A stretch of 64,000 nt of DNA, taken from NCBI GenBank assembly GCA_946187555.1, contig CAMHQP010000001.1:2651-66650 (forward strand), read 5' to 3'. Source of the stretch: an uncultured Bacteroidales bacterium (GTDB lineage: Bacteria; Bacteroidota; Bacteroidia; Bacteroidales; Paludibacteraceae). Below are positions 1,983-29,958 of this stretch, in pieces. The position numbers and the translations under genes are program-made. A model generated the notes under the pieces. The model was not told the DNA's origin, searched no databases, and saw only the letters and a list, made by a program, of their open reading frames with translations. Each line of letters opens with the position of its first letter. Position 1 is the stretch's first letter.

Positions 1983-2014
1983 TTTGCATATTTCAGAAAA
2001 AAGCAGTACCTTTG
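1983..2014 (+). promoter_or_regulatory. Bacteroidetes-type promoter (TTTGCATAT ... TACCTTTG)
   Basis: TTTG 1983-1986 and TACCTTTG 2007-2014, 20-nt spacer, 41 nt upstream of the ATG at 2056. Confidence 0.7.
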
Positions 2015-3416: not shown

Positions 3417-3448
3417 TTTGCATATGTCAAAAAAAAGTTGTACCTTTG
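3417..3448 (+). promoter_or_regulatory. Bacteroidetes-type promoter of the giant gene
   Basis: TTTG 3417-3420 and TACCTTTG 3441-3448, 20-nt spacer. The -7 box is embedded in the perfect 18-nt palindrome CCTTTGCAGCTGCAAAGG (3443-3460). Confidence 0.7.
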
Positions 3449-14413: not shown

Positions 14414-15622
14414 ATGAAAAAGCTTTTGATTATTATGATGACCGCTCTCAGTGTAGCGGTCTCGGCGCAGACGGACACGACGGCTGTGCCCAAAGACACC
14501 ACCGAAGGATTTCGTTTCACGACCATCGATAGCGTTGCTATCAGTCCGGTCAAAGACCAGAACCGCAGTTCGACCTGCTGGGCGTTCTCCACGCTCGGCT
14601 TCCTCGAGTCCGAAGTGTTGCGTATCAAAGGTAAACTGGTCGATTTCAGTCGTATGTTCGTAGTGAGCAAGACGATGATCGACCGCGCGACCTACTGCGT
14701 GCGTCTGTATAACGAGCCGAGGTTCGCCCCCGGCGGTAGTGCATACGACGTGATCTACTGCATGGAGCACTACGGTCTCGTGCCGCAAGAAGCGATGCCC
14801 GGTATTCGCTACGGCTGGACGGCGAACGATACCCTACCCGTGCATTCCGAACTCGACAAAGTGGCAGCCGGTTACCTCAAAGGCCTCAGCGGACTGAAAC
14901 GTATCAGTCCTGTGTGGCGCGAGGGACTGCAGGCTATCTACGATACCTATCTGGGCAAGTGTCCGGAGTCGTTTGAGTACGAAGGCAAGACCTACACCCC
15001 GCAATCATGGGTGAAGAGTCTCGGGCTCAACGCCGACGATTACGTGTCCATCACCAGCTATACCCACCATCCGTTCTATGAGCGTTTTGCACTCGAGGTG
15101 CCGGATAACTGGCGCATGGATCAGATGTACAACGTGCCTCTTGACGAGATGATGCGTATCATCGATAATGCGCTCGCGAACGGTTATACGCTGGCTTGGG
15201 GTGCAGACGTGAGTGAGATCGGTTTTACCCGCAAGGGTATCGGTGTCGTGCCGGACGATGATCACGGTGCCGACATCACCGGTAGCGATATGGCCAAATG
15301 GGTAGGCATGTCCAACGATAAGAAGAAAGAGGAACTGACCAAGAAACCGCTGCCCGAGAAGACGATCACACAGCAGATGCGGCAGGATGCGTTCGATAAC
15401 TGGGAGAACACCGACGACCACGGCATGCAGATCTTCGGTACGGCACACGACCAGAACGGCAAACGGTATTACATGGTTAAGAACTCCTGGGGCACCATGC
15501 GCTCGGACTACAAGGGTATATGGTACGTGAGCGAGGCGTTTATGCAATACAAGACCAATGATATCCTTGTGCACAAGAACGCTATCCCGAAAGATATTCG
15601 TAAAAAACTCGGTATCAAGTGA
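14414..15622 (+). CDS. pepC: C1-family cysteine peptidase (aminopeptidase C / bleomycin-hydrolase-like), secreted
   Basis: 402 aa. Signal peptide, active-site context QNRSSTCWAFS, C-terminal ...NSWG... motif typical of papain-fold C1B enzymes. Confidence 0.75.
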   Translation: MKKLLIIMMTALSVAVSAQTDTTAVPKDTTEGFRFTTIDSVAISPVKDQNRSSTCWAFSTLGFLESEVLRIKGKLVDFSRMFVVSKTMIDRATYCVRLYNEPRFAPGGSAYDVIYCMEHYGLVPQEAMPGIRYGWTANDTLPVHSELDKVAAGYLKGLSGLKRISPVWREGLQAIYDTYLGKCPESFEYEGKTYTPQSWVKSLGLNADDYVSITSYTHHPFYERFALEVPDNWRMDQMYNVPLDEMMRIIDNALANGYTLAWGADVSEIGFTRKGIGVVPDDDHGADITGSDMAKWVGMSNDKKKEELTKKPLPEKTITQQMRQDAFDNWENTDDHGMQIFGTAHDQNGKRYYMVKNSWGTMRSDYKGIWYVSEAFMQYKTNDILVHKNAIPKDIRKKLGIK

Positions 15623-16551
15623 GTAAGATTCAGGATAAGGATTGGTTGTATTTGTTTCTGCGGCCGTACGTCGATTGGATGTTCCGGCGGTCGTATCGGC
15701 ATTTTCGGTACGAGGGATTGGAGAATATCCCGACCGACGGGGCGGTTATCTTTGCGCCGAACCATACGAACGCTTTGTGCGACGCGATGGCGATATTAGG
15801 GATAGATGCGCAGCAAAAAGTGTTTGTTGCCCGGGCGGATATCTTCAAGGACCCGAAGAAAGCTGCTATCCTGAACTGGTTGAAGATCATGCCGATCAAC
15901 CGCATACGGGACGGACTGGAGGAAGTGCGGCATAACGACGAGACAATCAATAAGGCGGTGGACACGCTGCGAGACGGCGTTCCGTTCTGTATCTTCGCCG
16001 AAGGCACGCACCACCCCGACCGAACGATCTTGCCGCTGAGTAAGGGTATCTTCCGAATCGCGCTGCAAGCGAACGAGTCGTTCGGCCACGAGAAACCAAT
16101 CTATATCGTACCGGTAGGGATTGAGTACGGCGATTATTTCCATCTATGGAACAGCGTGTGCGTCACGATAGGTGCGCCTATTAACGTGACGGCGTTTGTC
16201 AATAGTCGATTGTCATTTGCCGATAGCAGGGCGCAGGTGATCATGGAACTGAGGGAGATACTGACCGAGCGATTGAAATCGCTCATTGGAGATTGGAGAT
16301 TGGAGATTGATGATCGTGGGTGGCCGAAGTGGTTGGCAGTTCTGCTATTCCCGTTGTTTGTAGTGAGTGCGGCGATGACGATCCCGTTGTGGGGCATGTG
16401 GTTGTTTATACAGCACCATGTCAAGGACCGGGCATTCCATAACTCGGTGATGTATGTATGGCAGTTGGTATTTTTGACCATCACGTTGCTCATACCATTG
16501 CCGTTTTGGATGTTTTTTCAAGAATATATTTATCAATTAAGACATGATTAG
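15619..16551 (+). CDS. lysophospholipid (1-acyl-sn-glycerol-3-phosphate) acyltransferase family protein with C-terminal membrane helices
   Basis: HX4D motif NHTNALCD, FAEGTH and PVGIEY blocks of the PlsC family. GTG start overlaps the pepC stop. Confidence 0.75.
   Translation: MSKIQDKDWLYLFLRPYVDWMFRRSYRHFRYEGLENIPTDGAVIFAPNHTNALCDAMAILGIDAQQKVFVARADIFKDPKKAAILNWLKIMPINRIRDGLEEVRHNDETINKAVDTLRDGVPFCIFAEGTHHPDRTILPLSKGIFRIALQANESFGHEKPIYIVPVGIEYGDYFHLWNSVCVTIGAPINVTAFVNSRLSFADSRAQVIMELREILTERLKSLIGDWRLEIDDRGWPKWLAVLLFPLFVVSAAMTIPLWGMWLFIQHHVKDRAFHNSVMYVWQLVFLTITLLIPLPFWMFFQEYIYQLRHD
16285..16312. repeat. 7-nt tandem array (ATTGGAG)x3 + ATTGATG
   Basis: Read directly. In frame inside the acyltransferase gene, encoding ...IGDWRLEIDD.... 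Confidence 0.9.
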
Positions 16552-17716
16552 AGTATATATTGTTATTGCGTTGTATGTGCTGGTGCCGGTGTTGATTATT
16601 GAGGCATTCAAGCGCTGGGAATGGATGCATAAAGTGGGCACGGTGGTAGCCGCTTATGCCATTGGTATATTGTTTGCGCTGACGGGTTTTGTGCATTTTG
16701 AACCGGGAACGGTAGAGGTGGCGACGTTCAGTAAGATCCAGTCACTGCTGATGTCGGTGACGGTACCGTTAGCCATCCCGTTGATGCTGTTCAACTGCGA
16801 TTTTAAGTTATGGACGAAAGCACTGCCGAAGACGCTGTGGTCGTTGGTGGGCGGTATCGGTGCGGTGCTGGCTGCGGTAATCAGCGGTTATTATATCTTC
16901 CGCACACCCGACGTACCGGAGTTCAATAAGGTAGCAGCGATGATGACGGGTATCTACACCGGCGGAACGATGAACTTCAATGCCTTGGGTGCGTCGCTCG
17001 GTGTCGATAAGACGGTGATGGCGATTGTGCTGGCGTTTGAGATGGTGCTGACCACGCCGTATATCTTATTTATTATCGGTGGCGGTTATAAGGTGTTCCG
17101 TAAGATCCTGCCGTACGACGATGTCACGCGCCGCGGACGTAAAGACGAGGACGTGGAGACCAAGGATATCGAGAACTACGACGGTATGTTCGCTAAAAAG
17201 AACGTCGGAGGTATGTTCATCGGTCTGGGTCTGAGTGTGCTGTTCTTAGCGATCGGTGCCGGTCTGGCATTGTTGCTGACGGGCACCTTAAATGAGTTGG
17301 TGGTTATTTTGACCATCACCACCCTCTCCATCATTGCGTCGTTCTTCAAGAAAGTACGTGAACTGCCGAAGACCTTTGAATTGGGTATGTTCTTTATTCT
17401 GATTTTCTCGGTGATCGTAGCCTCGCTGTTTGATATCCACAGCGTGAACGGCGGTAGCCTGATGATCGGTGGGTTCGTAGCGTGGGTGATGATTATGGCG
17501 GCGGGTCTGCATCTGTTGCTCTGCCGGATCATGCACGTGAGCGGAGATTTGTTCTGCGTGAGTCAGATCGCGCTGCTATGTTCTCCGCCTTTTGTGCCGC
17601 CGGTAGTGGGCGCAATGAAGAATAAGAAAGTGCTGATTTCGGGTATCGCCATCGGATTGGTAGGATACGCAGTAGGTACGTATTTGGGTGTGTTAATTGC
17701 TTATATTTTAGGATGA
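16544..17716 (+). CDS. polytopic inner-membrane protein, DUF819-like
   Basis: 390 aa and about 10 hydrophobic helices. The N-terminal pattern ...KRWEWMHKVGTVVAAYAIGILFA resembles DUF819 (YjcL-like) proteins. Overlaps the upstream gene by 8 nt. Confidence 0.5.
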   Translation: MIRVYIVIALYVLVPVLIIEAFKRWEWMHKVGTVVAAYAIGILFALTGFVHFEPGTVEVATFSKIQSLLMSVTVPLAIPLMLFNCDFKLWTKALPKTLWSLVGGIGAVLAAVISGYYIFRTPDVPEFNKVAAMMTGIYTGGTMNFNALGASLGVDKTVMAIVLAFEMVLTTPYILFIIGGGYKVFRKILPYDDVTRRGRKDEDVETKDIENYDGMFAKKNVGGMFIGLGLSVLFLAIGAGLALLLTGTLNELVVILTITTLSIIASFFKKVRELPKTFELGMFFILIFSVIVASLFDIHSVNGGSLMIGGFVAWVMIMAAGLHLLLCRIMHVSGDLFCVSQIALLCSPPFVPPVVGAMKNKKVLISGIAIGLVGYAVGTYLGVLIAYILG

Positions 17717-19197
17717 AAAAGATTTTTATTATACTATTAGCGGTGGTTATGCCGCTGGCGGTGATGGCAAAGAGACAACCGAAACCGCAGGAAGTGGACT
17801 CGTTGGGACGTAAGATCAAGACCGGTTGGAACTTCGGTATTTTGCCGAGTGTAGCCTATGATGCCGATTATGGTTTTCAGGGCGGTCTATTGACGAACGT
17901 GTATTATTACGGAGACGGTTCGCAGTATCCGGAGTATATCCACTCGTTGTATCTGGAGGCTGCGTACACGACCAAGCATCACGGTATCTTCCGTTTCAAT
18001 TACGACTCGAAGTACCTCATTCCGGGTTATCGGTTGACACTGGATGCCACCTATCTGCCGGATGCCATGTGCGATTTCTACGGTTTTAACGGGTATGAGT
18101 CGAAATACCACTACGACTGGCATAACTGGAGTAAGAAACCCGAGAAGATGGACGTGGCGGAATACCGTTCCCGTGTATTCTATAAGTATAAACGCGACCT
18201 GATTCGTGTGGCGGGTGATATAGAAGGGACGATTTACAAGGACCTTAAGTGGAATGCCGGTGTAGGCGTGTTGGGTTATTTAGTGGATGACTGCGATATC
18301 GACATGCTGAACGGAAAGAACAAGTACGACCCGAGTTTGCCGCATCAGAAAGCACTCAACCCCAACGAAGAATTGCTGTACGACAAATACAAACAATGGG
18401 GTCTGATCGGTGATGATGAGAAGAACGGCGGTTGGCATCCGTATCTCCGCGCCGGTATCACGTACGACACGCGTGACAAACGTCAGGGACCGAACAAAGG
18501 TATTTATACTGATTTGTTCTTCACCTATTCGGCGGCGTTCAATGCCAAGTACGGCAATCAGGCTTCCGCTGGGTACAACCACCTGCAGTTCAATTTCACC
18601 TTCCGCCATTACGTACCGTGTTACATCGATAAGAAGGGTGTACACCGTATCACGTTTGCTTACCGTGTCGGCCTGCAGAACCTCATTGCCGGACAGTCAC
18701 CGTTCTATATGAACAACTACCTGAACGCACTCTTTATCCAACGCGTGTATTACGAAGGACTGGGTGGCGGTAACTCGATTCGCGGTATGATGGCAAACAG
18801 GATTTTGGCAAACGGTTTCGCATTTGCGAACGTAGAGTTCCGCTTCCGGTTGGTTAATTTCGATATCGGTCGCCAGCATTTCTTCATCGGACTGAATCCC
18901 TTCTTTGACTTAGGTGTCATTACACAACCGTATGACTTGAATGAGTTAGTACAAACCCACACGCATGGCAAGTATGCTGACCTCTTGGCAAGTATGACCG
19001 CAGCCGGCGATGACTACGATACGTATTTTGACACAAAGGATAAGAACGCTTATTTGCCGCACATGACCGCCGGTTTAGGTCTGAAGATCGGTATGAACGA
19101 GAATTTCGTGCTTTCCGCCGATTGGGGTATGCCGCTTAATAAGCAGGACAATGCCAAATGGGCGAATTTCTACGTCAAAATGGGTTACTTGTTCTAA
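17713..19197 (+). CDS. outer-membrane beta-barrel protein, Omp85/surface-antigen (D15)-like
   Basis: 494 aa. Signal peptide MKKIFIILLAVVMPLAVMA, amphipathic beta-strand pattern throughout, C-terminal ...YVKMGYLF. ATGA overlap with the upstream gene. Confidence 0.55.
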   Translation: MKKIFIILLAVVMPLAVMAKRQPKPQEVDSLGRKIKTGWNFGILPSVAYDADYGFQGGLLTNVYYYGDGSQYPEYIHSLYLEAAYTTKHHGIFRFNYDSKYLIPGYRLTLDATYLPDAMCDFYGFNGYESKYHYDWHNWSKKPEKMDVAEYRSRVFYKYKRDLIRVAGDIEGTIYKDLKWNAGVGVLGYLVDDCDIDMLNGKNKYDPSLPHQKALNPNEELLYDKYKQWGLIGDDEKNGGWHPYLRAGITYDTRDKRQGPNKGIYTDLFFTYSAAFNAKYGNQASAGYNHLQFNFTFRHYVPCYIDKKGVHRITFAYRVGLQNLIAGQSPFYMNNYLNALFIQRVYYEGLGGGNSIRGMMANRILANGFAFANVEFRFRLVNFDIGRQHFFIGLNPFFDLGVITQPYDLNELVQTHTHGKYADLLASMTAAGDDYDTYFDTKDKNAYLPHMTAGLGLKIGMNENFVLSADWGMPLNKQDNAKWANFYVKMGYLF

Positions 19198-19201
19198 AAA
19201 A

Positions 19202-19233
19202 TTTGCATATATAAAAAATTATTCGTAATTTTG
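19202..19233 (+). promoter_or_regulatory. Bacteroidetes-type promoter (TTTGCATAT ... TAATTTTG)
   Basis: TTTG 19202-19205 and TAATTTTG 19226-19233, 20-nt spacer, 18 nt before the ATG at 19252. Confidence 0.65.
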
Positions 19234-19251
19234 CACGCAAAATTGTTTGGT

Positions 19252-21285
19252 ATGAAAAATAAGAAACCACATACCGGCTTATGGATTATCATCGTGGCAG
19301 CCGTTGCGCTGGAAGCGATCTCGTGTATTACGTATTTCACGAGTCGTGCGGCGATCAAGCATGAGGCGGAGCAACGCGCAAAAACCGAACTGCGCAAGGC
19401 GGAGTTGGAAATCGAGATGCATACAATCGAGATGGAGACGGCAGCCAAGGCTCTGGCACTGCTGGCGGAGAAATACGTTGATTGTCCAGACTCTATCTAT
19501 AAGGTTACCGATCTTGCCGTGCGTACGTTGCGGACCCACACCAGCATGGCCGTGGCCTATGTGCCGGATTATTTCCCGAAGGAAGGTCGCTATTATGAAA
19601 TCTGCAGCAGTCGTATCAGTGAAGACAGCGTCTATACGCGTCAGATAGGCAGTGCGGATCACGATTACACGGAATTGGAGTGGTGGCAGAACGGTTTTGT
19701 TCATGACAGTTGCTGGTGGTGTGAGCCGTATATGGACGATTCCGGTTCGGAGGCTCCGGTGGTGAGTTGCTCCTATCCGGTACGGGACAAAGCGGGCAAG
19801 ATAGTTGCTGTTGTGTGCGTTGATATGACGCTCGACTACCTGCAGAAGAAGCTGCCGGAGTACCTGCAAGTCTATAAGAACAGTTATTACTCAATCAAAT
19901 CGAGCAAAGGCGGTGATATCGTGCGGGTGATCGATACGATCCCGGGACGCAAGTACAACGTGTTCAACGAAGAGATCGACGCGACGGGTTGGCATATCGA
20001 GATCATCATTCCGGAGGATGAGATGTTCGCCGACCTTAACCGTATCGGTAAGATCATCGGTCTGTTGATGCTGCTGGGTCTGGGTGTGCTGATCTTTATC
20101 ATCTGGCATGCGGGACGTAATAACAAACGCCTGTTGGAGACCACCGCCGAGAACCAGCGTATGGAGAGTGAGTTGCAGATCGCGAGCACGATCCAGATGG
20201 CGATGTTGCCGAAAGTATTCCCGCCGTTCATGGATCGATTGGATCTGAACCTGTACGGTATGGTCGATCCGGCCAAAGAGATCGGCGGCGACCTGTACGA
20301 TTTCTATGTACGCCATAATAAACTGTTCTTCTGTATCGGCGACGTGAGCGGTAAGGGTGTTCCGGCGGCACTGGTAATGGCCATGACCCGTTCGCTGTTC
20401 CGCAGTATCACTTCCCACGAGGAAGACCCCGCGGAGATAGTACGTAAGATGAACCGCGCCATCGTTGATCAGAACACGCAGAATATGTTCCTTACTTTGT
20501 TCTTGGGTGCACTCGACTGCGAGACCGGTGAACTCGGTTACTGCAATGCGGGACATAATGCGCCGGTTGCGATTAGCGATGAGGGATTAGCGATTAGCGA
20601 GTTAGAGGTAGTGCCGAACCTGCCATTGGGTATCGAGCCGGAGTTTGTGTTTAAGGCACAACAGATGACGCTGAAACATGGAGACACGCTCTTCCTTTAC
20701 ACCGACGGCCTGACCGAGGCGGAGAACAAACGCCATGAGTTATACGGCGAAGGGAGAATGTTGAAGGAATTAATGGATGAAAGGATGAAAGGGTTGAGTC
20801 CGCGGCATTTGGTGAACGCTATGCAAGCGAGCGTGGAAGCCTTCCGCGAGGGAGCCGAGCAGAGCGATGATCTGACGATGCTCGTCGTTCGTTATCAGAC
20901 ACCGGCGCTCATTATGCGCAACGATATTGAGCAGATACCTACTCTTTCGGAGTGGATTGAAGGCTTGGGTATCCCCGAAGAACTGAATATGCCGGTTAAC
21001 CTCGCTTTGGAAGAGATCGTAAGCAACGTGATGCTGTATGCATATCCGCACTCGAGCGGACGCGTGATCGTTGAGTTCAGTAAAGGTGATCGATTGATAT
21101 TTACCATCACGGACAGCGGTATTCCTTTTGACCCGACCAAACAGAAAGAAGCGGACATCACGCTCAGCGCCGAAGAACGTCAGATTGGCGGACTCGGTAT
21201 TCATCTGGTGCGGCAGATCATGGACGAAGTGATCTATGAACGGGTTGAGGACAAAAATGTATTGACACTAATTAAACATATATGA
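19252..21285 (+). CDS. membrane sensor PP2C/SpoIIE-family phosphatase fused to an RsbW/SpoIIAB-type GHKL kinase domain
   Basis: ATG at 19252; the track start 19231 is a TTG inside the promoter. Two TM helices flank a ~230-aa extracytoplasmic region. PP2C motif GDVSGKGVPAALVMA. C-terminal LALEEIVSNVMLYAY, ITDSGIPFDP and GGLGIHLVRQIM form the HATPase N, G1 and G2 boxes. Confidence 0.85.
   Translation: MKNKKPHTGLWIIIVAAVALEAISCITYFTSRAAIKHEAEQRAKTELRKAELEIEMHTIEMETAAKALALLAEKYVDCPDSIYKVTDLAVRTLRTHTSMAVAYVPDYFPKEGRYYEICSSRISEDSVYTRQIGSADHDYTELEWWQNGFVHDSCWWCEPYMDDSGSEAPVVSCSYPVRDKAGKIVAVVCVDMTLDYLQKKLPEYLQVYKNSYYSIKSSKGGDIVRVIDTIPGRKYNVFNEEIDATGWHIEIIIPEDEMFADLNRIGKIIGLLMLLGLGVLIFIIWHAGRNNKRLLETTAENQRMESELQIASTIQMAMLPKVFPPFMDRLDLNLYGMVDPAKEIGGDLYDFYVRHNKLFFCIGDVSGKGVPAALVMAMTRSLFRSITSHEEDPAEIVRKMNRAIVDQNTQNMFLTLFLGALDCETGELGYCNAGHNAPVAISDEGLAISELEVVPNLPLGIEPEFVFKAQQMTLKHGDTLFLYTDGLTEAENKRHELYGEGRMLKELMDERMKGLSPRHLVNAMQASVEAFREGAEQSDDLTMLVVRYQTPALIMRNDIEQIPTLSEWIEGLGIPEELNMPVNLALEEIVSNVMLYAYPHSSGRVIVEFSKGDRLIFTITDSGIPFDPTKQKEADITLSAEERQIGGLGIHLVRQIMDEVIYERVEDKNVLTLIKHI
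20571..20604. repeat. 7-nt array GATTAGC GATGAGG GATTAGC GATTAGC GAGTTA
   Basis: Read directly. Encodes AISDEGLAISEL inside the PP2C domain. 20585-20604 is identical to 1208-1227. Confidence 0.9.
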
Positions 21286-21584
21286 AAACGGAAATTGTAA
21301 AAAACGGAGATCAACTGATTGCTAAGTTTGCCGGTCGGTTAGACACTCCTGCAGCCGTGCAAACCACGGAAGATGTAAAACCCTTATTGGAGGCGCAGAA
21401 CAAAGAGATTATCCTCGATTGCACCGAACTGGAGTATATCTCGTCGAGTGGTCTGCGTATCTTCCTGAGCATCCGCAAGGAAGCCGCAGCGCATGGCAGT
21501 AAGGTGATTGTTCGTAACATCAACGACGACATCCGTCAGGTATTCATGATGACAGGCTTTATCAGTCTGTTTGAAATTCAATAA
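21282..21584 (+). CDS. STAS-domain protein (anti-sigma-factor-antagonist / RsbV-SpoIIAA-like)
   Basis: 100 aa. LDCTELEYISSSGLRIFLSIRK contains the conserved phosphorylatable serine context. ATGA overlap with the upstream gene. Confidence 0.85.
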   Translation: MKTEIVKNGDQLIAKFAGRLDTPAAVQTTEDVKPLLEAQNKEIILDCTELEYISSSGLRIFLSIRKEAAAHGSKVIVRNINDDIRQVFMMTGFISLFEIQ

Positions 21585-21586
21585 GC

Positions 21587-22624
21587 ATGGATCTGCATAC
21601 TGAAATGTTGCTGGAGGAGTACCGCGAAGCGATACCTGTCTTTGAGCGCATGCAAGAAGAGGTGCTCGCTACGTTGCGCGATGCGCTACAGCGTAACGGC
21701 TTGATTGTGACGGCTATCGAGTCCCGCATCAAGACCGAAGAGAGCCTGGCAGGTAAGCTGGCATTGAAAGGCGGTAAGTATGCCTCTCTCAATGACATCA
21801 CCGATATCCTCGGCGCACGTATCGTGACCTTCTATACGGACGATGTGGATCGTATCGCAGCGATGGCAGAGCAGCTGTTCGAGATAGACTGGGAGAACTC
21901 GGTTGATAAACGTATGCTGCACGAGTTAGACAGTTTTGGTTATAACTCGCTGCATTACATCTGCAAAATGCCGGGTTACGACTATCGCTTTGAGTTACAA
22001 CTGCGTACAACCCTCCAGCATGCATGGGCATCGATCAACCACGATATCGGTTATAAGTCCGGCGTAGAGATCCCGCGTGAGTACATGCGGCGTATCAACC
22101 GTATGGCGGGTTTGTTGGAGATGGCTGACGATGAGTTCAGTCGTATCCGCACGGAGATTACGGACTACCGGCGTCGCGTACAACACCTGGTGCAGAACGG
22201 CAAATTGGACGATGTACAATTAGACGGCGATACGTTCAACAGTTATCTGCAGGTTCGTCCGTTCGATTCGCTCAATAAACGTATTGCGGCGATTAATCAG
22301 GCAGAGATACAGGAAGTACCGCTTATCCGATACCTACGGGTATTCAAGGCTTTGGGTTGCAATACCTTGGGCGATATCGAGCGTCTGAAGAAACAATACC
22401 AAGAGGATGCTTACCGTCTGGCGCGCCACCAGTTGGGCAACACCGATCTGGATATCATCTCTTCGGCAGTCGGTGCGCAGAACATCTGCATCGTATGTAT
22501 CCTGGCTACCGGTGGCGGCAAATTGGGTCTGGTACGTCTGTTTGATGCCCTCAACGGACATAATACCCAGAATGAAGCCATCGCCGAAATGACATATGAA
22601 CAAGCAAAAAACTTACAGTTATGA
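21587..22624 (+). CDS. RelA/SpoT-domain protein (stand-alone alarmone synthetase-like) with an uncharacterised C-terminal extension
   Basis: 345 aa. SRIKTEESLAGKL, ITDILGARIVTFY, FGYNSLHYI and ELQLRTTLQHAWASINHDIGYK match the synthetase (nucleotidyltransferase) core of RelQ/RelP-type enzymes. Confidence 0.8.
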   Translation: MDLHTEMLLEEYREAIPVFERMQEEVLATLRDALQRNGLIVTAIESRIKTEESLAGKLALKGGKYASLNDITDILGARIVTFYTDDVDRIAAMAEQLFEIDWENSVDKRMLHELDSFGYNSLHYICKMPGYDYRFELQLRTTLQHAWASINHDIGYKSGVEIPREYMRRINRMAGLLEMADDEFSRIRTEITDYRRRVQHLVQNGKLDDVQLDGDTFNSYLQVRPFDSLNKRIAAINQAEIQEVPLIRYLRVFKALGCNTLGDIERLKKQYQEDAYRLARHQLGNTDLDIISSAVGAQNICIVCILATGGGKLGLVRLFDALNGHNTQNEAIAEMTYEQAKNLQL

Positions 22625-23493
22625 CACCTATTAAAATTGATTTGAACGACTACGTGCGTACGGGCGAAGGCGCTAACGGCGCGAGTTTTAACCATAAGAC
22701 CGATCCGAACATCATGATGAAACTGTACCTGCGTAATTTTGAGTCCGCACGTACAGAGTTGGAGATGGCGAAGAAAGTGTATGAACTCGGTATCCCGAGT
22801 CCCGAACCGGGTGATCTGGTAACCGACGGCGAGCGGATGGGTATTCGTTTCCGCCGTATCGACGGTAAGAAATCCTACTCCCGTGCTTGCGGTGATGATC
22901 CGGAGCATACGGAGGAGTACGCTCGGGAATTTGCCCAGATGTGTCTTCAGTTGCACAACACACATGTCGATACCACGCAGTTCGAGAACGTCAAAGACCG
23001 TCAGTATAACTGGCTGAAAGAGAACCCGTTCTTTACAGAGGAGGAGAAAGACAAACTGCGTGCGTTCATTGCAGCAGCGCCTGACACCGACACCGCTATT
23101 CACGGCGATCTGCAGTTCAGCAACGGTATCTTCGTCGATAAAGACGGCAAGCGGGAGAAATACTTCATTGACCTAGGTGATTTCTGCTATGGTTATCCGA
23201 TGTTCGATATAGGTATGGTGTATCTGTGCTGCAAGCTGAATGACGAGAGTTGGACGCTGGAGCAATACCACATGAGCAATGCTACCGCCGGGCGCTTCTG
23301 GGACGCGTTTGCCGATGAGTATTTCCACTCTCCGGACTGCCCGATAGCGGGTTGCGGACCGAATGTCGATATGGAAGCGATTGAAAAGACCGTACGCGTC
23401 TATGCAGGTCTGAAGACCTTGCTTATTGAGAGTTGTACCCACCGCCCGATGCCGGAGTTCAGAGCGGTATTGGCAGAAAACATCCTGAAATAA
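22621..23493 (+). CDS. APH-fold (aminoglycoside phosphotransferase / choline-kinase-like) kinase family protein
   Basis: 290 aa. Catalytic loop AIHGDLQFSNGIF and metal-binding FIDLGDF. ATGA overlap with the upstream gene. Confidence 0.75.
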   Translation: MTPIKIDLNDYVRTGEGANGASFNHKTDPNIMMKLYLRNFESARTELEMAKKVYELGIPSPEPGDLVTDGERMGIRFRRIDGKKSYSRACGDDPEHTEEYAREFAQMCLQLHNTHVDTTQFENVKDRQYNWLKENPFFTEEEKDKLRAFIAAAPDTDTAIHGDLQFSNGIFVDKDGKREKYFIDLGDFCYGYPMFDIGMVYLCCKLNDESWTLEQYHMSNATAGRFWDAFADEYFHSPDCPIAGCGPNVDMEAIEKTVRVYAGLKTLLIESCTHRPMPEFRAVLAENILK

Positions 23494-24071
23494 TGGCAAA
23501 TAAATACCTGGACACCGACTTGTTGGATCGCGCAATTGTTTTCGCAGTAAAGGCGCACCATAACACGGAGCGGAGAGGCAAGGGTTTTCCGTATATCGTG
23601 CATCCGATGGAGGCCGTGGAGATTGTGGCTACTATCACACCGGATCAGGAACTATTGGCCGCAGCGGCTTTGCACGACACCATCGAAGATACAGACGTGA
23701 CGGTAGAGCAGATCCGTGAGGCATTCGGCGAGCGCATTGCAGAGTTGGTACATGCGGAGAGTGATCAGTTCACCGAGGGCGTCAGTGAGGAGGATAGTTG
23801 GCATGATCGTAAGCAAGCTGCTATCAATCGTCTGGCTGCCGCTCCGTACGATGCGAAGATAGTAGCGATGGGGGATAAGTTGAGTAACATGCGGGCTATC
23901 TGGCGTGACTATCAGGTCAAAGGCGATGCGTTATGGAATATCTTCCACGTCAAGGACAAAGCGTCACATGAATGGCATTATCGCGGGTTGGCTGCTTCGC
24001 TCAAAGAGTTAGAGGGCACATTTGCCTATCAAGAATTTGCACGATTAATAGATGATGTTTTTGCACATTGA
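23493..24071 (+). CDS. HD-domain hydrolase of the SpoT/Mesh1 (small alarmone hydrolase) type
   Basis: ATG at 23493 overlaps the upstream TAA (TAATG). AVKAHHNTERRGKGFPYIVHPMEAVEIV ... AAALHDTIEDT matches the (p)ppGpp hydrolase HD_4 signature. 192 aa. Confidence 0.75.
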   Translation: MANKYLDTDLLDRAIVFAVKAHHNTERRGKGFPYIVHPMEAVEIVATITPDQELLAAAALHDTIEDTDVTVEQIREAFGERIAELVHAESDQFTEGVSEEDSWHDRKQAAINRLAAAPYDAKIVAMGDKLSNMRAIWRDYQVKGDALWNIFHVKDKASHEWHYRGLAASLKELEGTFAYQEFARLIDDVFAH

Positions 24072-24871
24072 AAATTATCTTTGAACATATAGACAACGCC
24101 CGCGATTTAGGAGGAATGATCGGCGCCGGCGGACGAGCGATTCGTTCGCATCGCTTGATACGTACAGCGCATTTACACGAAGCCTCGGATGCCGATGTGA
24201 AACGACTCAAAGAGGAGTATAACCTCTGCCGTATCTTCGATTTCCGTTCGTTGGGCGAGTTTGAGGCTGTGCCGGATCGGGAGATAGAAGGCGTACAGCA
24301 TCATCTGCTGCCGACCATTGACATGCGAGCCGAGCAGCAGACCGGCAAACCCATACCCGACGAGGCGTTCTTGGAACTCGATCGTCATATCGTCAATTAT
24401 TCCTTCTATCCGGAGGTACAGATGATGGCGGCGAACATGTACCCGTCGCTGATTCGCTCAGAGTTCAGCCAGTTGCAGTACGCTGCCTTCTTGCGCCTGA
24501 TCATCGAAGCCCCCGAAGACGGCGGCATCCTTTGGCACTGCGCACAAGGAAAGGATCGTACGGGTTGGGGAGCAGCGTTCTTGATGTTCGCTTTAGGTAT
24601 CTCCCGAGAAGATATCATAGAAGATTTTGAGCAGAGCAACGAGCATTATCGACCGATCGTTAATAAACTGAACGCAGACGTTATTGCCCGCGGTGGCGGT
24701 GAAGCAGAGATGAAAGTGATACAAGCTTTCATGGGTGTAAGTACCCCAAATTTCATCTCCACCCTCGAGCTCATTGACCGCGAGTTCGGCGGCATGACCA
24801 ATTATCTGCATGAGATCCTGTGTCTCACGCACGATGATATACAAATCCTTAGAAAACGATACTTATTATGA
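24068..24871 (+). CDS. CX5R phosphatase (tyrosine-phosphatase-like, Y_phosphatase3 family)
   Basis: 267 aa. NARDLGG near the N-terminus and P-loop HCAQGKDRTGW. TTG start overlaps the upstream TGA. Confidence 0.75.
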   Translation: MKIIFEHIDNARDLGGMIGAGGRAIRSHRLIRTAHLHEASDADVKRLKEEYNLCRIFDFRSLGEFEAVPDREIEGVQHHLLPTIDMRAEQQTGKPIPDEAFLELDRHIVNYSFYPEVQMMAANMYPSLIRSEFSQLQYAAFLRLIIEAPEDGGILWHCAQGKDRTGWGAAFLMFALGISREDIIEDFEQSNEHYRPIVNKLNADVIARGGGEAEMKVIQAFMGVSTPNFISTLELIDREFGGMTNYLHEILCLTHDDIQILRKRYLL

Positions 24872-26322
24872 TTCACACCAACGAAGAAGTGGCACGCTGT
24901 CTCTTATGCGCAGATGCCCCCTGCGGTGCCAAGGTTGCCCGCGCTCTCCGCGCTTTGCGTTTTGATAACCTGTGGACAGCCGCAGAAGTGTTCAGTCAGA
25001 TCAACGACACCGAGATAGAAGCCGCCGAAAAGGCATGTATTCACTACGACAAACCTATTCGCATTGCGGAGTTGAAGAAGGCCGTCTTAGAAAACAGACC
25101 GGCGGTACATGAGGATCTGCCGTCGCTGGAGCTGAATTTTTGCGACATGGTTTGCGAGAACCCGTTCTTCCTGGCTTCGTCGGCCGTGTGCACCAACTAC
25201 GACATGGTCGCGCGGGCTTTCGATGCCGGATGGGCAGGTGTGTTCTATAAGACGATTTGCAAACAGGACATCCGCGAGGTCAGTCCGCGTTTTGATGCCG
25301 TACGCAAAGAAGGTACGCCTTTCGTCGGATTCCGAAATATGGAGCAGCTCTCCGAGAACCCGTACGAGATGGACTTCGATATCCTGCGTCGTCTCAAACA
25401 GAACTACCCCGCCAAACGCGTCATTGCCTCTATCATGGGTCAGACCGAAGAGGAATGGGTAGAGTTGGCTAAGATGGCAGAAGACGCCGGTTGCGATGCT
25501 GTAGAGCTCAACTTCTCCTGCCCCCAGATGAAACTATCCGGCTTGGGTAGCGATATCGGTCAAAACAACGAACTGGTACTGGCATATACTTCGTTCGTCT
25601 CAGAAGCAGTGAAGATACCTGTTATCCCGAAGATGACACCCAACGTCAAATCGATGGAGAAACCGGCCATAGCTTCTTTCTTCGGCGGCGCCAAAGGTAT
25701 CAGTGCTATCAACACCATCAAATCCATCACCATGAGTCATGATGCGGAGGTGAGCGAGAAGAAGACCGTCAGCGGTTATTCCGGCAAAGCCGTCAAACCG
25801 ATTGCGCTGCGTATGATATATGAGATGACCGGTCACCCGCTCATTCATAAAGCCGGCATCGAGAAACATATGGACGTCAGCGGTATCGGTGGTATCGAGA
25901 CTTGGCGCGATGCACTCGAGTTCATCCAACTCGGTTGCCGGAACGTGCAGGTTTGTACGGCCGTCATGCAGTACGGTTACCGCATCATCGATGACCTCAA
26001 ACTGGGTCTGCAGCATTACATGAAAGAGCGCGGTATCGTCGAACTGAAGAAACTCGTGGGCGAAGAACTCAAGAACATCGTGATGCCGTCTGATCTGGAT
26101 CGCGAGACAATGGTCTTCCCGAAAGTGGATCGAGATAAATGTATCGGTTGCGGCCGTTGTTATGTCTCCTGTATGGACGGTGGTCATCAGGCGATAGAGT
26201 TCGGTGAAGATCGTAAGCCGCGAATTATCGGTACCAAGTGTGTCGGTTGTCATCTTTGCCGTCTCGTCTGCCCGACTAACGCGATGGGAATGGCTAAACG
26301 TATGCCCAAACCACAGAAATAA
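24868..26322 (+). CDS. dihydroorotate/dihydropyrimidine dehydrogenase-family flavoprotein with C-terminal 2x[4Fe-4S] ferredoxin domain (PreA-like)
   Basis: 484 aa. DHO_dh-type TIM-barrel blocks (ELNFSCPQ, GIGGIETWRDALEF) and two CxxCxxCxxxC(P) motifs (CIGCGRCYVSC, CVGCHLCRLVCP). Confidence 0.7.
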   Translation: MIHTNEEVARCLLCADAPCGAKVARALRALRFDNLWTAAEVFSQINDTEIEAAEKACIHYDKPIRIAELKKAVLENRPAVHEDLPSLELNFCDMVCENPFFLASSAVCTNYDMVARAFDAGWAGVFYKTICKQDIREVSPRFDAVRKEGTPFVGFRNMEQLSENPYEMDFDILRRLKQNYPAKRVIASIMGQTEEEWVELAKMAEDAGCDAVELNFSCPQMKLSGLGSDIGQNNELVLAYTSFVSEAVKIPVIPKMTPNVKSMEKPAIASFFGGAKGISAINTIKSITMSHDAEVSEKKTVSGYSGKAVKPIALRMIYEMTGHPLIHKAGIEKHMDVSGIGGIETWRDALEFIQLGCRNVQVCTAVMQYGYRIIDDLKLGLQHYMKERGIVELKKLVGEELKNIVMPSDLDRETMVFPKVDRDKCIGCGRCYVSCMDGGHQAIEFGEDRKPRIIGTKCVGCHLCRLVCPTNAMGMAKRMPKPQK

Positions 26323-27093
26323 ATGCGTACCCCCGAACAGATAGCATTGGACAAACAACGGGATCGTCTGACGAAGCGTTTCCATAAGGCTTGTGCAGAC
26401 TACGGACTTATTGCCGATGGCGACCATATACTGATCGGCCTCAGTGGCGGCAAAGATAGTCTACTGCTGACCGAACTGCTGGGACGGCGTGCGAAGATTT
26501 ACAAACCTCGCTTTACCGTGACGGCACTGCATGTGCGGGTCAAAGAACGGGATTATCAAACGGATCTCAGTTATCTGGAACATTTCTGCCAAGAGGCAGG
26601 TGTGCCCTTGTTGGTTCGCGATACAGAGATCGGAGAGATTCCAAAATCAGAAATCAAAAATCAGAAATCAAAAATCGAAAACGAATGTTTTCTATGCTCG
26701 TGGTACAGACGCAAAACCTTATTCAATGTAGCGCAGGAGTTGGGATGTAACAAGATCGCTTTCGGACATCATCGGGATGATGTCGCCGAGACACTGCTGA
26801 TGAATTTGATTTATCAAGGGGCTTTCGCCACCATGCCGCCTAAACTGCAAATGGAGAAAATGCCCCTGCAAATTATCCGACCGCTATGTCTGATAGACGA
26901 GGCGGATATTGTTACGTATGCGGCCAAGAGAGGGTATCAAAAACAAGCCAAATTGTGCCCGTTTGAGCATGTGAGTTCGCGCGAAAAAGTGAAAGGATTA
27001 TTGGCGCAGATCAAAGCCCTCAATCCCGAAGCCGTGGACTCGATGTACGGGGCAATGACAAATATTAAGACGGAATATTTACCAAACAAATGA
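26323..27093 (+). CDS. ttcA: PP-loop ATPase, tRNA 2-thiocytidine synthetase TtcA-like
   Basis: 256 aa. PP-loop GLSGGKDS, CFLCSWYRRK and KIAFGHHRDD blocks. Contains a 42-nt heptamer array. Confidence 0.7.
   Translation: MRTPEQIALDKQRDRLTKRFHKACADYGLIADGDHILIGLSGGKDSLLLTELLGRRAKIYKPRFTVTALHVRVKERDYQTDLSYLEHFCQEAGVPLLVRDTEIGEIPKSEIKNQKSKIENECFLCSWYRRKTLFNVAQELGCNKIAFGHHRDDVAETLLMNLIYQGAFATMPPKLQMEKMPLQIIRPLCLIDEADIVTYAAKRGYQKQAKLCPFEHVSSREKVKGLLAQIKALNPEAVDSMYGAMTNIKTEYLPNK
26644..26685. repeat. 7-nt tandem array AAATCAG AAATCAA AAATCAG AAATCAA AAATCGA AAACGAA
   Basis: Read directly. Six units = 42 nt, in frame, encoding KSEIKNQKSKIENE just before the CxxC motif. Confidence 0.9.
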
Positions 27094-27461
27094 ATGCATT
27101 ATACACTATTTTATTGCTTTTAGCGTCGAATATCTTCATGACGCTGGCGTGGTACGGACATCTCAAATTGCAACAAACGGGATTCTTTACCAATTCCACG
27201 CCGCTTATCTTCGTGATACTCCTATCTTGGGGCATTGCTTTCTTCGAGTACTGCCTGCAAGTGCCGGCGAATCGGATGGGTTTTATTGGGAACGGCGGTA
27301 CGTTCAGTCTGATGCAACTCAAGGTCATCCAAGAGGTCATCACGCTGGTGGTGTTTGTCGTTTTCTCCGCGATTGCTTTCCATATGGAACTGAGGTGGAA
27401 TCATTTCGTAGCATGTCTGCTACTTATTGCTGCGGTCTATTTTGTTTTTGGATTCAAATAA
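27090..27461 (+). CDS. small DMT-superfamily membrane protein (DUF486-like)
   Basis: 123 aa and 4 helices. N-terminus LLLASNIFMTLAWYGHLKL is characteristic of the DUF486 family. Confidence 0.7.
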   Translation: MNALYTILLLLASNIFMTLAWYGHLKLQQTGFFTNSTPLIFVILLSWGIAFFEYCLQVPANRMGFIGNGGTFSLMQLKVIQEVITLVVFVVFSAIAFHMELRWNHFVACLLLIAAVYFVFGFK

Positions 27462-27462
27462 T

Positions 27463-28161
27463 ATGAAACGTATTGTTGTTTTCACGGGCGCCGGAGTGAG
27501 CGCAGAGAGTGGTCTGGGGACGTTCAGAGACTCAGACGGGTTATGGGAAAAATACCGCATCGAGGATGTGTGTACCCACGAGGCATGGCTGCGCAATCCG
27601 CAGTTATGTGTGGACTTCTACAACGCGCGCCGAAAAGACACCTTAGCGGCTCAACCGAACGCGGCGCATATAGCGATTGCTAAGTTGCAGCATGCCATCC
27701 CGGGTACGCGTATCATCACGCAGAATATCGACGATCTGCACGAACGCGCGGGGGCCAAAGAGGTCGTTCATTTACACGGCGAGATCACAAAGTTACGCTC
27801 GGAGAATAACGAGACGGCTACCGTGCCATTGAAGGGCTGGGAGCAGCATTACGGTGACCGTCATCCTGATGGGTCGTTATTACGTCCGTATATCGTGTTC
27901 TTCGGCGAAGGTGTGCCGTATTTCGATGAGGCATGTCGTATCGCGAGTGAAGCGGATATCATGGTGGTAGTGGGTACAAGTCTGAACGTGTATCCGGCAG
28001 CTTCGCTCATCCATTATGCGCCGGCTAACTGCCCGATTTATTTCGTTGATCCCGGACAACCGGAGTTCGGTATATGGGCGGATCGCATTACTCATATCCA
28101 AAAGCCTGCCACTGTTGGTGTACCGCTGCTGGTGGATAAACTGATTGAAGAAAATCGATGA
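27463..28161 (+). CDS. cobB: NAD-dependent protein deacylase (Sir2 family)
   Basis: ATG at 27463 gives MKRIVVFTGAGVSAESGLGTFRDSDGLW. QNIDDLHERAG and HLHGE blocks. 232 aa. Confidence 0.9.
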   Translation: MKRIVVFTGAGVSAESGLGTFRDSDGLWEKYRIEDVCTHEAWLRNPQLCVDFYNARRKDTLAAQPNAAHIAIAKLQHAIPGTRIITQNIDDLHERAGAKEVVHLHGEITKLRSENNETATVPLKGWEQHYGDRHPDGSLLRPYIVFFGEGVPYFDEACRIASEADIMVVVGTSLNVYPAASLIHYAPANCPIYFVDPGQPEFGIWADRITHIQKPATVGVPLLVDKLIEENR

Positions 28162-29000
28162 ATCCGTATATTCAGTCATTACGTTTGAGAACACTACCGT
28201 TATCGATGTCGGGAATCATTCTCGGCACGGGTTTGGCTGGTTTTCAAAACGGGATCGTCTTCACACTTGCTATCTGCACGACGCTGAGTCTGCAGATACT
28301 GAGTAATCTCAGTAATGAACTCGGCGATGCGATGAAAGGGACGGATGCTGACCAACATGGACGCGAAGCCTATGGTCTGCAAGCCGGCACGATCACCATG
28401 CAGCAGATGCGGAACATGATCTTGCTCTTCATCGGCCTGTGTATTGTCTTTGGAACGGCTCTCGTATGGACGGCCTTCGGTACACTCAATAGCGAACAGA
28501 GTTGGGTTTTTCTTGGCCTTGGTGCATTAGCCATCGTAGGGGCTATCAAATACACCCTCGGTAAGCACAGTTACGGGTATATCGGTTTGGGTGATGTAGG
28601 TGTCTTACTTTTCTTCGGTTTGCTGAGTACCATCGGTGGATACTACCTTCAAACGCAGACGCTTACATGGGAGATTGTTGCCTGCGGCGCGGCTATCGGT
28701 TTACCCTGCGTGGGCGTACTCAATCTCAATAACATACGCGATATGAATAACGATCGCGTGCATGGGAAGCGGACATTCGCCAGTTTATTAGGCCCTATCG
28801 GCGCGCGGATTTATCACACCATGCTTTTAGTGAGTTGTCTGGCATTTTTTGCAGGATACGGGCATTGGTGGACACTCGTCATCATCCCTATATGGGCATG
28901 GCATCTATGGTACATATGGACACATTCCGATAAACTGGACAAACAGATGCCGGTACTGATGTTCACCACCCTAATTGTGTCAATTTTGGCACTATTTTGA
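28158..29000 (+). CDS. menA: 1,4-dihydroxy-2-naphthoate prenyltransferase (UbiA superfamily)
   Basis: 280 aa and about 8 helices. First aspartate-rich motif NELGDAMKGTD and second NNIRDMNNDR. Confidence 0.75.
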   Translation: MNPYIQSLRLRTLPLSMSGIILGTGLAGFQNGIVFTLAICTTLSLQILSNLSNELGDAMKGTDADQHGREAYGLQAGTITMQQMRNMILLFIGLCIVFGTALVWTAFGTLNSEQSWVFLGLGALAIVGAIKYTLGKHSYGYIGLGDVGVLLFFGLLSTIGGYYLQTQTLTWEIVACGAAIGLPCVGVLNLNNIRDMNNDRVHGKRTFASLLGPIGARIYHTMLLVSCLAFFAGYGHWWTLVIIPIWAWHLWYIWTHSDKLDKQMPVLMFTTLIVSILALF

Positions 29001-29071: not shown

Positions 29072-29947
29072 ATGAAAGGAATTATTCTTGCCGGAGGAAG
29101 TGCAACAAGGTTGTACCCTTTAAGTAAAGCGATCAGTAAACAGATTATGCCGGTTTATGACAAGCCGATGATCTATTATCCGCTTAGTACGTTGATGTTA
29201 GCTGGCATCCGCGAAGTATTGGTAATCAGTACGCCGCGAGACCTGCCGATGTTTGAAGAACTGCTTGGTGACGGAAGCCGTATAGGTATGAAATTGAGTT
29301 ATAAAGTGCAACTCGTTCCTAACGGTCTGGCGCAAGCTTTTGTGCTGGGTCGCGAGTTCCTGAACGGCGAACCGGGATGCCTTATTCTGGGCGATAACAT
29401 GTTCTATGGTCAGCATTTCGGTCATATGCTCAAGGATGCTGTAGCGAGCGTGAAAGATGGGGGTGCGTGTATCTTCGGTTATGAAGTGGCTGACCCGCGT
29501 GCGTACGGCGTAGTCGAGTTTGATCCGGACGGTAAGGTGCTGTCGCTCGAAGAGAAACCGGCAAATCCAAAGAGCAATTATGCCGTTCCCGGCTTGTATT
29601 TCTACGACGAGACAGTATGTGAGAAGGCAGCGAATCTGCAACCCAGCGCCCGTGGAGAATATGAGATCACCGACCTCAATAAAATCTACCTCAATGAAGG
29701 TACCCTGAAAGTGAAACTCTTCAGCCGCGGTTTTGCATGGCTCGATACGGGTAACTGCGATAGTCTGCTCGAAGCCGGTAATTTCATTGCTACCATTCAG
29801 AACCGTCAAGGATTTTATGTAAGCTGTATCGAGGAGATCGCATGGCGTAATGGATGGATCAGCACCGAGCAGTTGGCTGCATTAGGCAAAGAGATGAAGA
29901 CGGCTTACGGTCGTTATCTGGAGCGCGTAGCCAGCAAAGGATTCTAA
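29072..29947 (+). CDS. rfbA: glucose-1-phosphate thymidylyltransferase
   Basis: ATG at 29072 gives MKGIILAGGSATRLYPLSKAISKQIMPVYDKPMIYYPLSTLMLAGIREVLVIS, the canonical RmlA N-terminus. 291 aa. Confidence 0.92.
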   Translation: MKGIILAGGSATRLYPLSKAISKQIMPVYDKPMIYYPLSTLMLAGIREVLVISTPRDLPMFEELLGDGSRIGMKLSYKVQLVPNGLAQAFVLGREFLNGEPGCLILGDNMFYGQHFGHMLKDAVASVKDGGACIFGYEVADPRAYGVVEFDPDGKVLSLEEKPANPKSNYAVPGLYFYDETVCEKAANLQPSARGEYEITDLNKIYLNEGTLKVKLFSRGFAWLDTGNCDSLLEAGNFIATIQNRQGFYVSCIEEIAWRNGWISTEQLAALGKEMKTAYGRYLERVASKGF

Positions 29948-29958
29948 ACTATACCATC

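Follow-up and report, generated by a model that had tools for sequence, protein, structure and literature searches.

What would a membrane-bound partner-switching module control when it is encoded beside an alarmone synthetase and an alarmone hydrolase, and no sigma factor is encoded with it? This question is raised by six open reading frames (ORFs), all in the same direction, in a rumen Bacteroidales genome (an uncultured member of the Paludibacteraceae, contig CAMHQP010000001.1). They lie in a stretch of 64,000 nucleotides (nt) of this contig, which was analysed as a whole and is called the window here. The genes, g1 to g6, encode a membrane sensor, a STAS protein, a small alarmone synthetase (SAS), an APH-fold kinase, a small alarmone hydrolase (SAH) and a Cys-based phosphatase (Table 1). 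The initial annotation, made from the sequence alone, described them as a translationally coupled cassette and proposed that the phosphorylation state of the STAS protein could gate the balance between synthetase and hydrolase. We hold with high confidence that these genes form one functional unit. The joining of a partner-switching module to a SAS/SAH pair is supported by its conservation between varying flanks, by its recurrence in other gene orders and by a kinase-SAS fusion protein.

We scanned for relatives of g3 with one genome per species, which yielded 131 relatives, and mapped the best 80 loci with the window proteins. These best 80 of the 131 loci are all in metagenome-assembled genomes of rumen or gut Bacteroidales, labelled Paludibacteraceae, Bacteroidales or Bacteroidaceae. 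The order g1-g2-g3-g4-g5(-g6) is found in the large majority of them, with g1 identity down to ~52%, while the flanks change: the Omp85 and preA neighbours persist in the nearest relatives only, and preA is sometimes upstream or inverted. The junctions from g1 to g5 have median gaps of 1-20 nt (68-78 species), the tightest being g2-g3 with a median of 1 nt. Variants among these close relatives lack g4 or g6, have the sensor downstream (L075, L077, L079) or carry a second sensor-STAS pair (L072). In summary, the gene set recurs around the SAS gene in about 80 rumen or gut Bacteroidales species, which answers the concern, raised with the initial annotation, that the order might not be conserved beyond this strain.

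The ~350-amino-acid (aa) architecture of g3, a synthetase with a C-terminal extension, belongs to a large family (979 representatives at E<=1e-30), and gene contexts were surveyed for family members 33-57% identical to g3. All six genes recur in the altered order SAS-sensor-STAS-SAH-APH-Y_phosphatase3 (L093, L129), and five of them as SAS-SAH-APH-sensor-STAS (L117, L142). Minimal sets are present in SAS clades 33-55% identical to g3, namely STAS-SAS (STAS-SAS-GerE in L082/83), SAS-SAH-STAS (L086) and a split SAS-STAS-SpoIIE-HATPase_c_2 set of separate genes (L085). The L085 locus adjoins a Treponema-like release factor gene; this version is probably from Treponema, so the unit would not be confined to Bacteroidota. 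The sister loci L085 and L100, whose SAS proteins are 99% identical, are not alike in the phosphatase gene. That of L085 (L085:6027-6452) encodes 141 aa, and in L100 (L100:5091-6705) STAS and the SpoIIE domain lie ~1 kb further apart; a deletion could account for this, as could a difference in assembly.

The linkage was quantified in a census with hidden Markov models (HMMs) built from our own orthologue alignments and run on 173 loci, 80 of which were found by scanning metagenomes with a distant clade as the seed. A domain was counted when it lay within 6 kb of the SAS gene on the same strand, and loci were taken as non-redundant at <90% SAS identity and with at least 3 kb of flanks. Near the SAS gene, STAS was present in 66 of the 79 non-redundant loci, SAH in 61, SpoIIE in 60, HATPase_c_2 in 59, APH in 51 and Y_phosphatase3 in 41; for the 33 loci outside the first genome scan, the corresponding counts were 20, 18, 15, 14, 9 and 6. 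Since the HMMs were trained on orthologues of this cluster, for divergent relatives all these counts are minimum values. The 79 loci show 29 distinct gene arrangements. Across 1,312 kb of these loci outside the clusters, the same HMMs gave a background of 3 STAS, 3 SpoIIE and 5 HATPase matches, and they found no further matches elsewhere in the 64-kb window. From this background ~0.03 STAS matches per 12 kb are predicted, compared to 0.6-0.84 observed, an enrichment of more than twentyfold. When clades were assigned by single linkage at 60%, partner-switching genes were near the SAS gene in 7 of the 12 assessable clades and directly adjacent in six. The Lachnospiraceae loci L087/88, in which STAS and HATPase_c_2 lie ~5.5 kb to either side with unrelated genes between, were not counted as linked.

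A covalent link was also found. The protein P0124 (521 aa) consists of an RsbW-type HATPase_c_2 domain, a short linker and a complete SAS 47-48% identical to g3, and two more HATPase_c_2-SAS fusions, 81-82% identical to P0124, occur on other contigs from other sources. Because the fusion is kept in three sequences from different assemblies, it is not an accident of gene calling. The kinase domain of the fusion shares 45% identity with that of g1 (E 1.7e-35), with intact N, G1 and G2 boxes; the neighbouring proteins place these loci in Xylanibacter/Prevotella. Judged by its sequence, the fusion is a Rosetta-stone link between a partner-switching kinase and the synthetase. The six-gene cassette of the initial annotation holds as a linked unit; as a fixed set of six genes it does not, and a core (sensor, STAS, SAS and SAH) with accessory genes is the better description.

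Do the individual proteins have what such a unit needs? Searches of the six proteins against Pfam and NCBIfam agreed with every domain call made at the outset, and the ORFs, the quoted motifs and the membrane topology of g1 were confirmed as well. In all six proteins the catalytic motifs vary little or not at all (62-93 orthologues, 33-98% identity). In g1, two hydrophobic segments flank a ~230-aa outside domain, with positive charge on their cytoplasmic sides. Among 75 g1 sequences, the metal-binding motifs GDVSGKG, TDG and SDD of the phosphatase and its metal-binding residues D364, D485, D539 and D540 are invariant, as are the ATP-binding motifs E..N, D.G.PFD and GGLGI (N, G1 and G2 boxes) of the kinase. 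The ATG at 19252 was taken as the start of g1 in preference to the TTG at 19231, because the latter falls within the -7 box of the promoter described below. The g2 protein aligns with SpoIIAA (1TH8/1AUZ) and TM1442, such that the phosphorylated Ser58 of SpoIIAA corresponds to Ser55 of g2; neither S54 nor S55 varies in any of the 85 sequences.

The locus therefore has three hallmarks of partner switching: a STAS protein with a conserved Ser, a HATPase_c_2 domain with intact ATP boxes and a PP2C domain with metal-binding Asp residues. The classical fourth, a sigma-factor output, is missing. As first annotated, neither a sigma factor nor a DNA-binding output is encoded: no sigma-70 or helix-turn-helix (HTH) domain was found by Pfam in the six proteins, nor in the variant clusters, and for this reason we group the locus with the partner switches that have non-sigma outputs. 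A GGDEF domain was likewise not found in the cluster by Pfam. In two loci, a second, divergent sensor copy lies just downstream of the cluster (L072:11433-13744, L141:10502-11563); in L072 it is accompanied by a STAS gene, with ~33% identity to g1/g2, which suggests that in some species multiple inputs feed the same output.

The g3 protein has a RelA_SpoT synthetase domain and no HD, TGS or ACT domain, as is usual for a SAS. Its AlphaFold2 (AF2) model (predicted local distance difference test, pLDDT, 85.8) matches RelQ/RelP in Foldseek with template modelling (TM) scores of 0.7-0.82, and Foldseek found no PDB counterpart of its C-terminal domain (aa 205-345). The catalytic motifs R.K...S...K, D..G.R, GY.S.H, E.Q.RT and W....H...YK are invariant in 94 sequences, so the worry that the synthetase might lack key catalytic residues is removed. 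The closeness to RelQ/RelP leads us to infer that g3 makes (p)ppGpp or pGpp, the substrates being ATP with GTP, GDP or GMP. For g5, a single-domain HD_4 protein with the metal-binding and catalytic residues of an SAH, the best PDB sequence matches are the solved SAHs 7QOE and 7QOC, followed by Lmo0812 and Mesh1, and the motifs H...HD...ED...D..N are invariant in 74 sequences. By their motifs, g3 and g5 are ordinary members of the RelA/SpoT homologue (RSH) superfamily, save for the extra C-terminal domain of g3. Two unusual ORFs were noted along the way. In P0193 (422 aa), an amidohydrolase-like N-terminus precedes a region with 54% identity to g3 aa 174-343; gene calling may have produced a chimera here, or the C-terminal domain may have a second context. 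In P0153 (528 aa, on a 3.3-kb Logan contig), a single ORF contains SAS and then HD_4, the reverse of the domain order of long RSH proteins; it was set aside as evidence, being a singleton that a frameshift in overlapping SAS and SAH genes could have produced as an artefact.

The two remaining proteins appear to be accessory. The AF2 model of g4 (pLDDT 84, predicted TM score 0.85) has methylthioribose kinase, APH(3') and choline kinase as its nearest folds in Foldseek (TM ~0.5), which points to a kinase of the small-molecule type; a PDB sequence search gave only RecA-repeat matches, judged spurious. The motifs HGDLQ.xN and IDLGDF are invariant among the g4 orthologues, and, where present, the APH gene nearly always adjoins the SAH gene. 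For g6, the PDB relatives are 8DHI and the M. tuberculosis PtpB; its C(X)5R motif HCAQGKDRTG is invariant in 63 sequences, and it is the member most often absent. In 20 loci, a cytidylate-kinase-like gene (Pfam PF13189; 30-81% mutual identity) lies beside or inside the cluster (L077:7004-7651, L072:10789-11427; also L025, L060, L061, L062, L074 and L133). It stands between SAH and Y_phosphatase3 in several species, is absent from the window's own cassette and may belong to the unit as a seventh member, accessory and related to nucleotides. In 12 loci, in varying positions and SAS clades (including L077:12752-14548, L082:5840-7633, L150, L149 and L021-L024), the cluster adjoins a gene for a CitMHS-type transporter with TrkA_C domains; it could hint at carboxylates as the class of ligand sensed, or be a coincidence.

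Table 1. Features of the window, in window coordinates.
Feature	Position	Strand	Description
Promoter-like site	752-783		Match to the Bacteroidetes-type pattern
Promoter-like site	1983-2014		Match to the Bacteroidetes-type pattern
Promoter-like site	3417-3448		Match to the Bacteroidetes-type pattern
Overlap-joined gene run	14414-29000	+	Includes genes unrelated to the cluster
Candidate promoter	19202-19233	+	Bacteroidetes-type, TTTG-N20-TAATTTTG; in the 54-nt gap between an Omp85-family gene and g1
g1	19252-21285	+	677 aa, membrane sensor; PP2C phosphatase and RsbW-type kinase fused
g1 transmembrane segment 1	19279-19344	+	aa 10-31
g1 extracytoplasmic PDC/Cache	19345-20046	+	~230 aa; Pfam MCP-like PDC/dCache
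g1 transmembrane segment 2	20047-20109	+	aa 266-286
g1 SpoIIE/PP2C	20317-20895	+	Pfam SpoIIE, E 5e-54
g1 HATPase_c_2 kinase	20944-21276	+	Pfam, E 1e-21
g2	21282-21584	+	100 aa, single-domain STAS, SpoIIAA/RsbV-like; Pfam STAS, E 9e-17; anti-sigma-factor antagonist superfamily, TIGR00377
g2 Ser55 codon	21444-21446	+	Predicted phospho-acceptor, from the SpoIIAA alignment
g3	21587-22624	+	345 aa, SAS; Pfam RelA_SpoT, E 3e-18
g3 catalytic domain	21587-22186	+	aa 1-200, RelQ/RelP-like
g3 C-terminal domain	22199-22621	+	aa 205-345, ~140 aa, mostly helical, family-specific
g4	22621-23493	+	290 aa, APH-fold kinase; Pfam APH; uncharacterised family TIGR02172, 230 bits (cutoff 228)
g5	23493-24071	+	192 aa, SAH of the Mesh1-SpoT type; Pfam HD_4, E 5e-19
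g6	24068-24871	+	267 aa, Cys-based phosphatase; Pfam Y_phosphatase3, E 1.5e-52
Hybrid two-component protein	29854-33516	+	1220 aa; beta-propeller sensor, histidine kinase, receiver, AraC HTH
Promoter-like site	61900-61931	-	Match to the Bacteroidetes-type pattern
Promoter-like sites	63475-63522	both	Matches to the Bacteroidetes-type pattern

The gene junctions themselves carry less information than the conservation. From g1 to g6 they read ATGA, a 2-nt gap, ATGA, TAATG and TTGA, exactly as given in the initial annotation. Unrelated neighbours on the + strand overlap likewise (15619/22, 16544/51, 17713/16, 24868/71, 26322/23, 27090/93, 28158/61 and 28997/29000), within an overlap-joined run that takes in genes for a C1 peptidase, an acyltransferase, a membrane protein and Omp85 as well as preA, ttcA, a sirtuin gene and menA. 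The preA gene, which is not conserved beside the cluster in most species, overlaps g6 by ATGA (the 24868/71 junction). Because unrelated neighbours, this one included, overlap alike, tight junctions are not specific evidence for a cassette. Hence, of the claim of a translationally coupled cassette, the junction sequences stand, and the use of overlap as evidence does not, overlap being general in this genome.

The candidate promoter upstream of g1 is likely the start of the transcription unit, judging by the Bacteroides -33/-7 consensus. The pattern TTTG-N18-22-TAnnTTTG has 8 matches in the window, compared to 0.64 expected, and no full match on the + strand within the cassette. At the 8 sites, an extended consensus, TTTGCATAT...(A-rich)...TACCTTTG, exceeds the textbook -33/-7 Bacteroides motif in length. 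A scan for sigma-70-type promoters and intrinsic terminators gave fewer matches than shuffled sequence, or no more, and is uninformative for a Bacteroidetes genome. The 1220-aa hybrid two-component protein in Table 1 is of the type that regulates polysaccharide utilisation in Bacteroidetes and is unrelated to the alarmone locus.

How could such a unit work? Taken as a whole, the explanation that we moderately favour is one operon that converts an extracytoplasmic ligand into a nucleotide alarmone. The periplasmic PDC/Cache domain of g1 would sense a small molecule and shift the balance between the sensor's own PP2C and RsbW-type kinase domains, which together would set the phosphorylation of Ser55 in g2. 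The state of g2 would then decide, via protein contacts, whether g3 is active, and we consider it probable that the phosphorylation state of the STAS protein controls SAS activity post-translationally. In a version modelled on the classical switch, the kinase domain of g1 would hold g3 at the membrane, as RsbW holds sigma-B; unphosphorylated g2 would bind the kinase domain and free g3, which would make (p)ppGpp or pGpp. Removal of the alarmone by g5 would make the response transient, and g4, g6 and sometimes the cytidylate-kinase-like protein would be accessory, probably acting on nucleotides or on one of the proteins. Within control by the STAS protein, this version, with the SAS held by the kinase domain, is put forward only tentatively; it is preferred because of the kinase-SAS fusion. 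The logic of the pathway follows, by analogy, RsbU/V/W, SpoIIE/AA/AB, SiaABCD and HsbR/HsbA. Genomic linkage and the fusion give indirect support to a predicted alternation of the kinase or the STAS protein between two protein partners, one of them the output.

Several points weigh against this explanation. Every protein contact in it, like the sign of the regulation, the ligand and the nucleotide product, is deduced from homology and genomic context. The census HMMs were trained on this cluster's own orthologues, and most of the loci are from rumen metagenomes, a taxonomically skewed sample. A stand-alone SAS gene was seen in Prevotella (L090-92), in Olsenella (L081) and in 8 of the 79 non-redundant loci overall, so the enzyme can work without adjacent partner-switching genes. 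The fusion is limited to three sequences in one small Prevotellaceae clade, and no STAS gene was found within 8 kb of the fusions. Finally, the loci that have STAS but neither kinase nor phosphatase within 6 kb (L082, L062, L135, L086, L094, L160 and L168, in several arrangements) fit direct binding of the STAS protein to the SAS at least as well as the holding of the SAS by the kinase.

Such direct binding is the alternative that survives best. The STAS protein would activate or inhibit the SAS according to its phosphorylation state, and g1 would only write and erase the phosphate. We rate it nearly as likely as the holding of the SAS by the kinase, because no neighbour of the SAS gene is more constant or closer than STAS, which is usually immediately adjacent to it, and because STAS-only loci exist; as an account of the whole locus it remains somewhat unlikely, although a serious contender. 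The architecture of g1 also resembles that of HsbR and SypE, in which the STAS protein carries the signal. On the other side, three kinase-SAS fusions with no nearby STAS gene suggest proximity of kinase and SAS, although the fusion could merely scaffold the kinase beside a STAS-SAS complex.

If co-expression were all that joins these genes, the partner switch would act on a target whose gene lies elsewhere, for instance a different enzyme or a sigma/anti-sigma pair, and its link to the SAS/SAH genes would be transcriptional or physiological. SAS genes often stand alone and tight packing is general in this genome, as this would lead one to expect. However, the linkage is independent of gene order in six or seven SAS clades against a very low background, minimal two-gene STAS-SAS units exist, no gene for a sigma/anti-sigma target was seen in any cluster, and a covalent kinase-SAS fusion would be difficult to account for if the two had no direct functional relationship. 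We therefore regard co-expression alone as improbable.

A toxic SAS (toxSAS) with the SAH as its antitoxin, in a toxin-antitoxin or abortive-infection system triggered by the partner switch, is more improbable still. In toxSAS loci (FaRel, CapRel, PhRel; PMC7229694), the SAS lies beside a neutralising gene, sometimes for an SAH, so that SAS-SAH pairs are a known arrangement; CapRel has a C-terminal regulatory domain, and the C-terminal extension of g3 is of like size (~150 aa). The catalytic domain of g3 also matches the PADLOC candidate PDC-S33 (E 4e-15), but the match covers the shared catalytic core only and was judged insufficient for a role in defence. The PDB sequence matches of g3 (aa 1-200) are to SASs of the RelQ/RelP type only, no CapRel or Tas1 structure matched g3 in the PDB sequence search at E<=0.01, and CapRel superposes on the g3 model in Foldseek only at a root-mean-square deviation (rmsd) of >20 A. 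Moreover, the cluster is chromosomal, conserved and apparently vertical across the whole family (52-98% identity), with no mobile-element genes nearby, and stand-alone members of the family, without an SAH or a small neighbouring gene, lie in housekeeping contexts that would not be tolerable for a toxin. Chance adjacency in a densely packed genome, to which the 4-nt overlaps that also join unrelated genes such as g6 and preA might point, is refuted by the changing flanks in about 80 species, the 29 gene orders, the more than twentyfold enrichment and the domain fusion.

Among known systems, SiaABCD of P. aeruginosa is like this locus in that a membrane PP2C phosphatase (SiaA) and a kinase (SiaB) set a small, STAS-like switch protein (SiaC), the output being a synthetase of a nucleotide second messenger (SiaD). 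SiaC acts on the diguanylate cyclase SiaD, as HsbA does on HsbD. In contrast to SiaD, a GGDEF diguanylate cyclase, the output here would be a RelA/SpoT-type pyrophosphokinase; in addition, phosphatase and kinase are fused in a Cache sensor, and a dedicated hydrolase is included. The NCBIfam SiaA model matches the phosphatase domain of g1 only partially (E 2e-14; 53 bits compared to a cutoff of 700), and g1 is not an equivalog of SiaA. In HsbR-HsbA(-HsbD/FlgM) of Pseudomonas and SypE-SypA of Vibrio fischeri, a PP2C domain and an RsbW-type kinase are combined in one polypeptide with a single-domain STAS target and non-sigma outputs. Their input is a receiver domain and not a periplasmic Cache domain, their outputs are cyclic di-GMP (c-di-GMP), flagellar or biofilm functions, and no RSH enzyme is known to be involved. 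SypA and SypE are described in PMC8256260 and PMC10120452. The RsbU/RsbV/RsbW-sigma-B and SpoIIE/SpoIIAA/SpoIIAB-sigma-F systems of Bacillus share the same three families, SpoIIE/PP2C, STAS with a phospho-Ser and HATPase_c_2. Unlike them, the clusters described here contain no sigma factor, the kinase is tethered to the phosphatase and the membrane, and the candidate for the held partner is an enzyme. RelQ/RelP of Firmicutes and the SAHs Mesh1 and those of the 7QOE/7QOC type resemble g3 and g5 in catalytic domain fold and motifs, whereas g3 has the additional ~140-aa C-terminal domain and a phospho-signalling module is encoded here alongside the SAS and SAH. RelQ/RelP are controlled by transcription and allostery (pppGpp, RNA) and are not known to be controlled by partner switching. 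By these comparisons, the locus works like the non-sigma partner switches SiaABCD, HsbR/HsbA and SypE/SypA and is a member of none of them.

The initial annotation knew of no module that couples a partner switch to SAS/SAH enzymes, and our literature searches led to the same result. In the full-text literature we found no description of a SAS coupled to partner switching, STAS, SpoIIE or RsbW; subscription papers were thinly covered, so an earlier description is possible. Papers that join partner switching and ppGpp concern other matters, two RSH surveys mention no such neighbourhood and a STAS review mentions no ppGpp. Hence, this suggests that a partner switch with an alarmone synthetase as output is new, although its parts are of known kinds.

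A further extension of the proposed pathway is doubtful, and we mention it as such. The locus might be a widespread, ribosome-independent alarmone trigger, by which an extracellular metabolite acts through the Cache domain and the phosphorylated STAS protein, and the accessory enzymes (the APH-like kinase, the cytidylate-kinase-like protein and the Cys-based phosphatase) might add phosphate to the product or remove it, giving a new or modified alarmone species in place of plain (p)ppGpp; the carriers of such a trigger would be gut and rumen anaerobes of the Paludibacteraceae and Prevotellaceae, probably with Treponema.

SASs are known to be controlled by transcription, by allosteric pppGpp and by RNA, and their activation is only partly understood. 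The conserved operon points to a way, so far undescribed, in which an outside signal could lead to alarmone production, and, if true, a phosphorylation-driven partner switch with a periplasmic input would give the RSH superfamily a new principle of control. To our knowledge, the outputs of partner-switching systems have so far been sigma factors, c-di-GMP cyclases, secretion and biofilm formation; an alarmone synthetase would be a new class of output. The natural variants, namely the two-gene STAS-SAS unit, the split-gene set and the kinase-SAS fusion, would be ready constructs for tests of this reading. The module is found widely among Bacteroidales of rumen and gut and probably occurs outside their phylum as well. 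It abounds in those rumen and gut Bacteroidales by which the degradation of fibre is dominated, and could thus explain how such uncultured bacteria couple nutrient or host-derived signals to growth arrest.

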